Source: an uncultured archaeon (GTDB taxonomy: Archaea > Asgardarchaeota > Jordiarchaeia > Jordiarchaeales > Jordiarchaeaceae). Taken from it: a stretch of 19,699 nt of DNA. Of the stretch, positions 1,149 through 1,266 are shown piece after piece (the stretch's first letter is position 1; each line of letters starts with the position of its first letter). The DNA lies in the NCBI GenBank assembly GCA_964510585.1, contig CAZECW010000056.1:1-19699 (forward strand), written 5' to 3'. Made by a program: the position numbers and the translations under genes. The notes beneath the pieces were generated by a model. It was not told the DNA's origin and searched no databases. It saw nothing but the letters and a program-made list of their open reading frames with translations.

Positions 1149-1242
1149 TACGCTTACGCGTTTTAGACAAAGGACGAAAATTTTTAGTTTTTCATGGGAA
1201 ACCCGTCTACGCTTCGCGTTTTAGACAGAAATATGAAAAATC
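1149..1242 (+). repeat. Two tandem copies of a REP-like unit; the second is interrupted by the IS110 element
   Basis: TACGCTTACGCGTTTTAGACAAAG...TTTTTCATGGGAAA (1149-1201) and TACGCTTCGCGTTTTAGACAGAAATATGAAAAATC (1208-1242). A related copy lies on the minus strand at 5606-5655. Confidence 0.75.
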
Positions 1243-1266
1243 TTTTCTTGTTCTCCTGCGTCTTAA

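Follow-up and report, generated by a model that had tools for sequence, protein, structure and literature searches.

A two-part repeat of an Asgard archaeon as a probable mini-copy of an IS110-family element with a predicted two-loop bridge RNA

The repeat described here is a unit of about 55 bp in which a hairpin (part B) is followed by a palindrome (part A). It lies beside, and also within, an IS110-family element in a window of 19,699 nucleotides, the whole stretch of archaeal DNA that was analysed, which makes up one complete contig of its genome. The unit is best explained, with a probability of roughly 0.7, as a non-autonomous MITE-like derivative of that element. Its left end (hairpin B and the left arm of A) is joined to the right end (the right arm of A and a terminal GGC), and the leader of the full element would encode a bridge RNA with two loops. 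An initial annotation of the window had proposed that the repeat either hosts the IS or derives from it. The second option fits the data, as the units share both ends with the IS, and the first does not, as empty sites lack the whole unit and not only the IS.

A direct reading of the letters agrees with the initial annotation on the two-part structure of the unit, on its tandem copies, and on a copy near position 5606 on the minus strand. Solo unit 1 is a complete mini-copy at 1144–1198 on the plus strand (nhmmer E = 2.9e-14). It follows a host A-run at 1139–1143 and contains hairpin B at 1149–1161, the conserved TTAGACA at 1163–1169, and palindrome A at 1174–1195, and it ends in GGG. The AAA at 1199–1201, between unit 1 and the IS, is read as the shared core, that is, the crossover region, on the basis of the junction census and of empty sites that show 1–3 extra A per insertion. 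Unit 2 starts at 1202, is cut by the IS body after 1241/1247, and returns with its right part at about 2680–2692. On the minus strand, a third, complete unit occupies 5606–5664 (nhmmer E = 9.8e-16) and is followed by AAA-TA host sequence. A degenerate fourth unit lies upstream of it at approximately 5665–5714 on the same strand, preceded by T-AAAAA, and makes this locus a two-unit array; it was read by eye and falls below the nhmmer threshold. The B pattern had no match in 200 shuffles of the window. The window also holds a 139-nt near-perfect palindrome at 887–1025 (arms 887–955 and 957–1025, 75% complementary), which belongs to another MITE-like family with dozens of copies in the sister genomes G001, G003, and G004.

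The repeat forms a multi-copy family, and the host is an archaeon, both as first supposed. A profile built from the units and run with nhmmer found 75 B+A copies on many contigs of the source genome (G000; 3.78 Mb in 217 contigs), singly or in arrays of 2–4. A strict unit pattern found 8, 32, 29, 2, and 0 copies in five other genomes of the same genus, and the reversed control pattern found 0. The IS is present in three of these five genomes and absent from two at both the DNA and the protein level. All four IS-bearing genomes have at least 8 units each (75 in the source genome), whereas the two IS-free genomes have 0 and 2, a co-occurrence that is suggestive only, the genomes being related. 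Thirteen copies share an identical 45-nt core, and the similarity between them stops exactly where the unit ends. Of these 13, eleven stand after T-AAAAA, and 12 are followed by an A-run and then TA. These identical copies point to a recent spread of the units. The unit corresponds to IS positions 1202–1241 plus 2681–2692 and has no coding capacity; it therefore shares both ends with the autonomous element. It has no terminal inverted repeats, since the arms of A are internal and the ends are not inverted repeats of each other, and there is no duplication beyond the A-run. The units are thus MITE-like only in the loose sense in which the term is used for MITEPpu9.

The full mobile element, as it is read here, spans 1202–2692 on the plus strand (1491 nt) and comprises a left-end module, subterminal inverted repeats, a putative bridge-RNA gene, and a transposase pseudogene. 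It is likely that B and both halves of palindrome A belong to this element and are not host DNA. The left-end module B covers 1202–1232, with a hairpin at 1209–1219 (loop TTC), TAGAC at 1222–1226, and a spacer. Palindrome A is a pair of 10-nt subterminal inverted repeats. Its left arm at 1233–1242 is a perfect inverted repeat of 2680–2689, and the right arm together with the terminal GGC extends over 2680–2692. The AAA core of the right junction follows at 2693–2695, and the host DNA beyond it forms part of an uninterrupted, repeat-free site in G001 and G003. The IS body has about 51% G+C, compared with 27–40% in its surroundings.

The transposase pseudogene lies at 1453–2670 on the plus strand. 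Its reading frame is broken by at least one in-frame TAG (2098–2100) and by two frameshifts, near 2390 and 2510. It encodes an N-terminal DEDD RuvC-like domain (PF01548, E = 1.3e-26, 93.7 bits against a cut-off of 29) and a C-terminal Tnp domain (PF02371, E = 1.2e-20). An intact relative of 406 amino acids is present in G001 (L003:1718-2935). The archaeal protein is homologous to the structurally solved recombinases of IS621 and ISCro4 (8wt6, E = 1.1e-19; 9t56, E = 2.7e-15). At the position of the catalytic Ser241 of IS621, the alignment shows a Thr in the motif I-T-K-K-G-S, and a Ser lies two residues upstream. The I-T-K motif (I-T-K-K/R/Q-G-S/N) was present in all six Asgard homologues in which the motif scan located it, namely this IS (window ~2350-2375; L003:1718-2935), L058, L066, L073, L078, and L080. 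Most IS copies in the source genome are pseudogenes, and C177, the one copy that may be intact, is truncated by the end of its contig. Among the 301 genomes of the phylum covered by a protein search, only this genus had close relatives of the transposase, and the next best matches were about 40% identical. Contig scans of genomes and of metagenomes gave one new close IS copy each. Records in which this IS occurs bear the labels Candidatus Freyarchaeota and Jordarchaeia, which places the host among the Asgard archaea. L040 (JBNVCE010000141.1), a contig of 2.1 kb assigned to a Thermoplasmatota MAG, has the same left end of unit plus IS as the Freyarchaeia copies, by either mis-binning or transfer.

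The IS is tied to the repeat at every junction that could be read, as had been proposed. All 11 left junctions run from B through the spacer and the left arm of A into the IS body at the same position in A, and all 11 right junctions run from the IS body through the right arm of A and GGC or a variant into AAA. The 11 left junctions belong to copies or fragments found in four genomes, on one metagenome contig, and on one contig that bears the label of another phylum, and the IS sample as a whole consists of 10–11 related, non-independent copies from one genus, in draft genomes of metagenomic origin. Clean empty sites were found for two solo units, in two to three sister genomes per locus, with the form T/C-A5-7-TAA. 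At both of them, the insert is the whole B+A unit plus 1–3 A, placed in the A-run before TAA. About five further filled and empty pairs gave the same ends (host A-run, C...GC, and AAA-TA). Insertion thus takes place at a short A-run core common to donor and target, without real target duplication beyond the 1–3 extra A. The crossover base cannot be placed within the A-run; one locus gained 3 A and another gained 1. Three further searches for empty sites found no syntenic partner.

Several observations bear on the position of B relative to the element. Among about six comparisons of filled and empty loci, no pair was found in which both genomes carry the unit and only the 1.44-kb body differs; all the empty sites lack the whole unit or array. 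This is the comparison that the initial annotation had suggested, and the insert was the complete B+A unit and never the IS body alone. Four related IS copies (C177, L003, L040, and C216) have B in common, and their similarity stops just upstream of it. The loop TTC of hairpin B was found in all three cleanly parsed IS-linked units and in none of 46 parsed solo units (p = 5e-5), and by eye all six IS-linked B hairpins of the source genome have the loop CTTCGC. Together, these data suggest that B travels with the IS.

Several copies of the element stand where the order of the host DNA changes. In G001 and G003 (L024 and L026), the right flank of the window IS (from 2693 onwards) directly adjoins the left flank of the C73 IS, with no repeat between them. 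The right end of C73 overlaps C181. These two observations suggest that G000 probably carries a rearrangement between two IS/array loci. The IS copy of G001 and a unit on C28 are also located at synteny breaks. In G004, one locus (L018, contig C195) has an IS, three units, and an A-only module, which interrupt an apparently continuous coding region of G000 C62 (~24150-24200). At G000:C196 (L009), positions 2990–3321 contain two more short repeat families of ~175 nt and ~100–135 nt, which have many copies in G003 and G004. They sit between the host flank and the IS-bearing unit, forming a nest of insertions.

The leader of the IS is predicted to form a structured RNA. The stretch of 205 nt from the left inverted repeat to the start codon forms a better fold than any of 200 shuffles (z = -3.41), and the consensus fold of nine copies has an outer stem and two internal-loop domains, each capped by a hairpin. 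In the window, this bridge-RNA-like non-coding region covers 1268–1440 on the plus strand (173 nt), with the outer stem formed by 1276–1284 and 1422–1429. An Rfam scan of the whole window at E ≤ 1 returned nothing for the leader and only a sub-threshold DnaX match elsewhere. An exact-match scan of the leader against the flanks gave, with matches at fixed positions, a candidate guide on each of the four loop sides, all on the plus strand. In loop 1, the 5' side (S0, 1294–1305) is antisense to the A-run plus TA(AAA) and is read as a right target guide, and the 3' side (S1, 1321–1336) corresponds in sense to the DNA that adjoins the element on its left (1195–1202 in the window, the end of unit 1) and is read as a left target guide. 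In loop 2, the 5' side (S2, 1359–1368) matches, in sense orientation, the TAGAYAAA that directly follows hairpin B within the element. The 3' side of this loop (S3, 1383–1394) corresponds in sense to the right end and the core (2688–2696) and is read as a left donor guide.

These matches are specific to individual copies. S1 matches positions -48 to -39 in eight copies, and S2 matches -19 to -10 in seven. S3 matches +6 to +15 over 9 nt exactly in all four copies that have a right flank, including the rare ATAAC variant of the C196 copy. S2 follows the variants of its own TAGAYAAA site, with T, C, or G at the first base and C or T at the fifth. S0 shows a 7-nt exact match in C196, C177, and L053, and about 9 of 11–12 nt in L002 and C73 by manual alignment. 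In a permutation of guides against flanks in ten copies, the observed identity of S1 and S2 together was reached in 2 of 100,000 trials (p = 2e-5), although the relatedness of the copies means that this overstates their independence somewhat; the single guides gave p = 0.001 for S1 and p = 0.007 for S2. In arrays, S1 matches the end of the preceding unit, and in singletons it matches unrelated host DNA. A G000 unit stands directly after a 9-nt site identical to S1 of the C73 copy, and the same site is unoccupied in G004, where it lies inside an ORF. The empty site of the intact G001 copy, found in G003 and G000, has a 7-nt left match to S1 (GTT-A-run) and a 9-nt right match to S0. These two sites show that genuine host DNA is read by S1. 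Gene conversion of the leader with the adjacent unit was weighed as a cause of the covariation and rejected, because the segments between the matches are non-homologous and S1 matches host DNA outside the unit.

Read in mirror-image polarity, three of the four loop sides would be canonical, and S2 would not. The site of S2 lies 20–30 nt inside the element and the match is in sense orientation, which makes it unlike the right donor guide of IS621. No antisense guide for the first bases of the element was found in the leader. S2 itself was tried in that role and rejected, as it gives a 5-nt match in the window copy only. A reading of the RNA from the opposite strand was also rejected, as it does not restore the IS621 geometry.

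The guides of each IS clade also agree with the ends of one subfamily of solo units. In the C177/L003 clade, S1 reads UU-AAAAA-C, S3 reads AUAGC-AAA, and S0 is antisense to AAAATAAAAG. The 13 identical units end in ATAGC at T-A5 sites and thus fit the guides of this clade. Units that end in ATGGN stand after a left flank of the ATGGNAAA type in 21 of 31 cases and fit S1 and S3 of the C56 clade. Mainly on the strength of this concordance between unit subfamilies and IS clades, the IS machinery probably moves the units in trans. Arrays probably grow because the unit end resembles a target.

Together with these data, a mechanism can be proposed. The 5' leader of the IS would be expressed as a two-loop bridge RNA, in which loop 1 would be the target-binding loop that selects the target. 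Loop 2 would be the donor-binding loop that reads the element, with S3 directed to the right end plus core and S2 to the site beside hairpin B. Recombination by IS110 chemistry would take place inside the A-run, which would serve as the core. Because mini-copies retain the sites for loop 2, cognate IS copies could mobilise them in trans. The right end of a unit plus AAA resembles the target of one IS clade, and new copies would land beside old ones to form tandem arrays. For the window copy, the expected circle junction would join the right end (2683–2692) through AAA to 1202 onwards, which differs from both junctions predicted in the initial annotation.

Two other readings place the ends of the IS elsewhere, and both had been outlined in the initial annotation. 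The first lets the IS run from the left A arm to the right end (~1232-2692). B would then be a pre-existing target read by S2 as left target guide (TAGAC-AAA), S0 and S3 would be the right and left donor guides, and a solo A would be an ends-only mini-IS inserted at B. Several observations agree with it: S2 (sense) and S0 (antisense) overlap across the boundary between B and A as a target and donor guide pair would, A-only modules stand directly after GGC-AAA at G004 loci and on C187, an array on C191 reads B-B-A-A, and the C73 copy combines a B of the C177-clade type with an IS body of the C56 clade. The arms of A are indeed IS ends, but a left end at ~1229 is too far in, given the private TTC loop of IS-linked B hairpins and the fact that S1 matches host DNA upstream of B, which this reading leaves unexplained. 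In addition, no empty B was found, the only genuine B without a following A being that of the C191 array (by eye, the remaining B-only matches look like chance matches of a loose pattern), every filled and empty comparison lacks B and A together, and the flanks of the 13 identical copies diverge upstream of B and not after it. As a whole, this reading is unlikely. The mixed lineage of C73 nevertheless suggests that a shorter element, from A to A, may also be mobile. Considering this copy, the position of S2 and S0 on both sides of the B and A boundary, and the A-only and B-only modules, the ends are probably modular by analogy with ISPpu9/MITEPpu9, with B+A as the usual mobile unit.

The second reading takes A as a host REP-like palindrome and lets the IS body enter at its centre (1248-2687 at a shared TTTTC, or 1244-2682 with the CT core known from IS621), so that the repeat would be independent and merely a preferred target. 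Bacterial IS110 members do target REPs (PMC11208160, PMC12288879), GAAAA-N-CT-TTTC occurs at both junctions, CT is the core of IS621 and the dinucleotide of 7 of 11 right junctions, and GCT or TCT forms the centre of a few solo A palindromes of the predicted length. However, the right dinucleotide is AT in the window copy and two others, most solo A centres are AAG, ATG, or longer and not NCT, and the shared motif is simply the 10-nt subterminal inverted repeat. No leader loop segment on either strand gave an IS621-style guide for the CT in palindrome A or for the implied RE-LE junction, and all guide-like matches lie at the outer boundaries of the unit or flank palindrome A. A resident host target also conflicts with the private B variant of IS-linked units and with empty sites that lack the whole unit. 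This reading is highly improbable, and with it falls the suggested archaeal counterpart of the IS621/REP relationship, as the repeat is part of the element and not a host target. It is also conceivable, though quite improbable, that another enzyme, either a RAYT-like Y1 transposase or an unknown one, moves the units, with the IS as a passenger or specialist in one unit type and the guide matches as a product of co-evolution with its carrier. The genome encodes four Y1 (IS200/IS605-type) transposases, and each unit has two hairpins, as in IS200/IS605 ends and REPs. The third pair of the hairpin B stem is also kept in every parsed unit, as C-G in 33 units, A-T in 14, T-A in one, and T-G in one. 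Against this, no unit shares a contig with any of the four Y1 genes, the solo-unit sites match the target guides of the IS clade with the same end type, and the units are absent or nearly so in the two IS-free sister genomes.

Within the preferred reading, in which B+A is a mini-copy of the IS, the unusual S2 invites a tentative extension that we rate as rather doubtful. S1, S2, and S3 are in an order colinear with the bottom strand, that is, flank, hairpin B, spacer, hairpin A, and end. The donor loop might therefore read the element on one DNA strand only: S2 and S3 would pair with bottom-strand sites that flank palindrome A, which would face an RNA hairpin of similar length. This arrangement would fit a folded single strand or an extruded cruciform, and the 55-nt units could then move as single-stranded minicircles. 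If true, such single-strand reading would explain how an element too short for a double-stranded circle transposes and builds arrays.

Bridge RNAs, a liking for repeats, and an IS110-associated MITE-like module have been published for the IS110 family (PMC11208160, PMC12288879). The closest parallel to the units is ISPpu9/MITEPpu9 of Pseudomonas putida, in which the end boxes of an IS110-family element also flank a small non-autonomous module, the module is tandem in some strains, and the shared core is short. Circles of the IS, the module, or both were described there as "modular transposition" (PMC12288879). The bacterial system has host REP/BIME targets, an AG core, and a much larger module with an sRNA gene (PMC12288879), whereas the archaeal mini-copy is about 55 bp, consists of two ends only, forms arrays, occupies A-run sites, and belongs to an Asgard host.

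IS621 and ISCro4 have a homologous recombinase and, encoded ahead of its gene, a structured RNA in which the sides of two internal loops correspond to target and donor. They also share with the archaeal element one sense and one antisense guide that overlap at the core, and the lack of true target duplication (PMC11208160, PMC11208158). The polarity is the mirror image, since each loop of the archaeal RNA carries its sense guide on the 3' side, and the antisense guide is 5', whereas in IS621 the 5' side carries the sense guide. An A-run takes the place of CT as the core, S2 matches in sense orientation a site within the element on the far side of a DNA hairpin, and a Thr is aligned with the catalytic Ser241. 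Moreover, the target of IS621 is a host REP, while the REP-like repeat of the archaeon is part of the element. Elements of the IS1111 group (IS4321/IS5075; cited in PMC11208160) likewise have subterminal inverted repeats (here 1233–1242 and 2680–2689) and a strong tie to a repeated sequence, but their guide RNA is reported at the other element end and the targeted repeat belongs to a different transposon. Bacterial REP/BIME sequences with RAYT are also short, palindromic, mostly intergenic, multi-copy, and often clustered. The archaeal units differ from them in having no RAYT association, in their recent insertions with empty sites in sister genomes, and in having both ends in common with an IS.

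Compared with the published systems, the new aspects are the Asgard setting, the extremely small mini-copy that builds arrays, the A-run core, the mirror-image polarity, and the odd fourth guide (S2). In Asgard genomes, this repeat family would be annotated as mobile mini-copies and not as host REPs. About 100 natural insertion sites are available against which an archaeal bridge RNA can be read. The features that depart from the IS621 model are the mirror-image guide polarity, the A-run core, the Thr in place of the catalytic Ser, and the donor-loop guide that would read an internal site. The system is compact, with a 55-bp donor, a predicted RNA of 173 nt, and a recombinase of 406 amino acids from a hot-spring organism, and it can be tested directly at the bench. 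Because the element is found at several synteny breakpoints, it probably helps to reshuffle these genomes.
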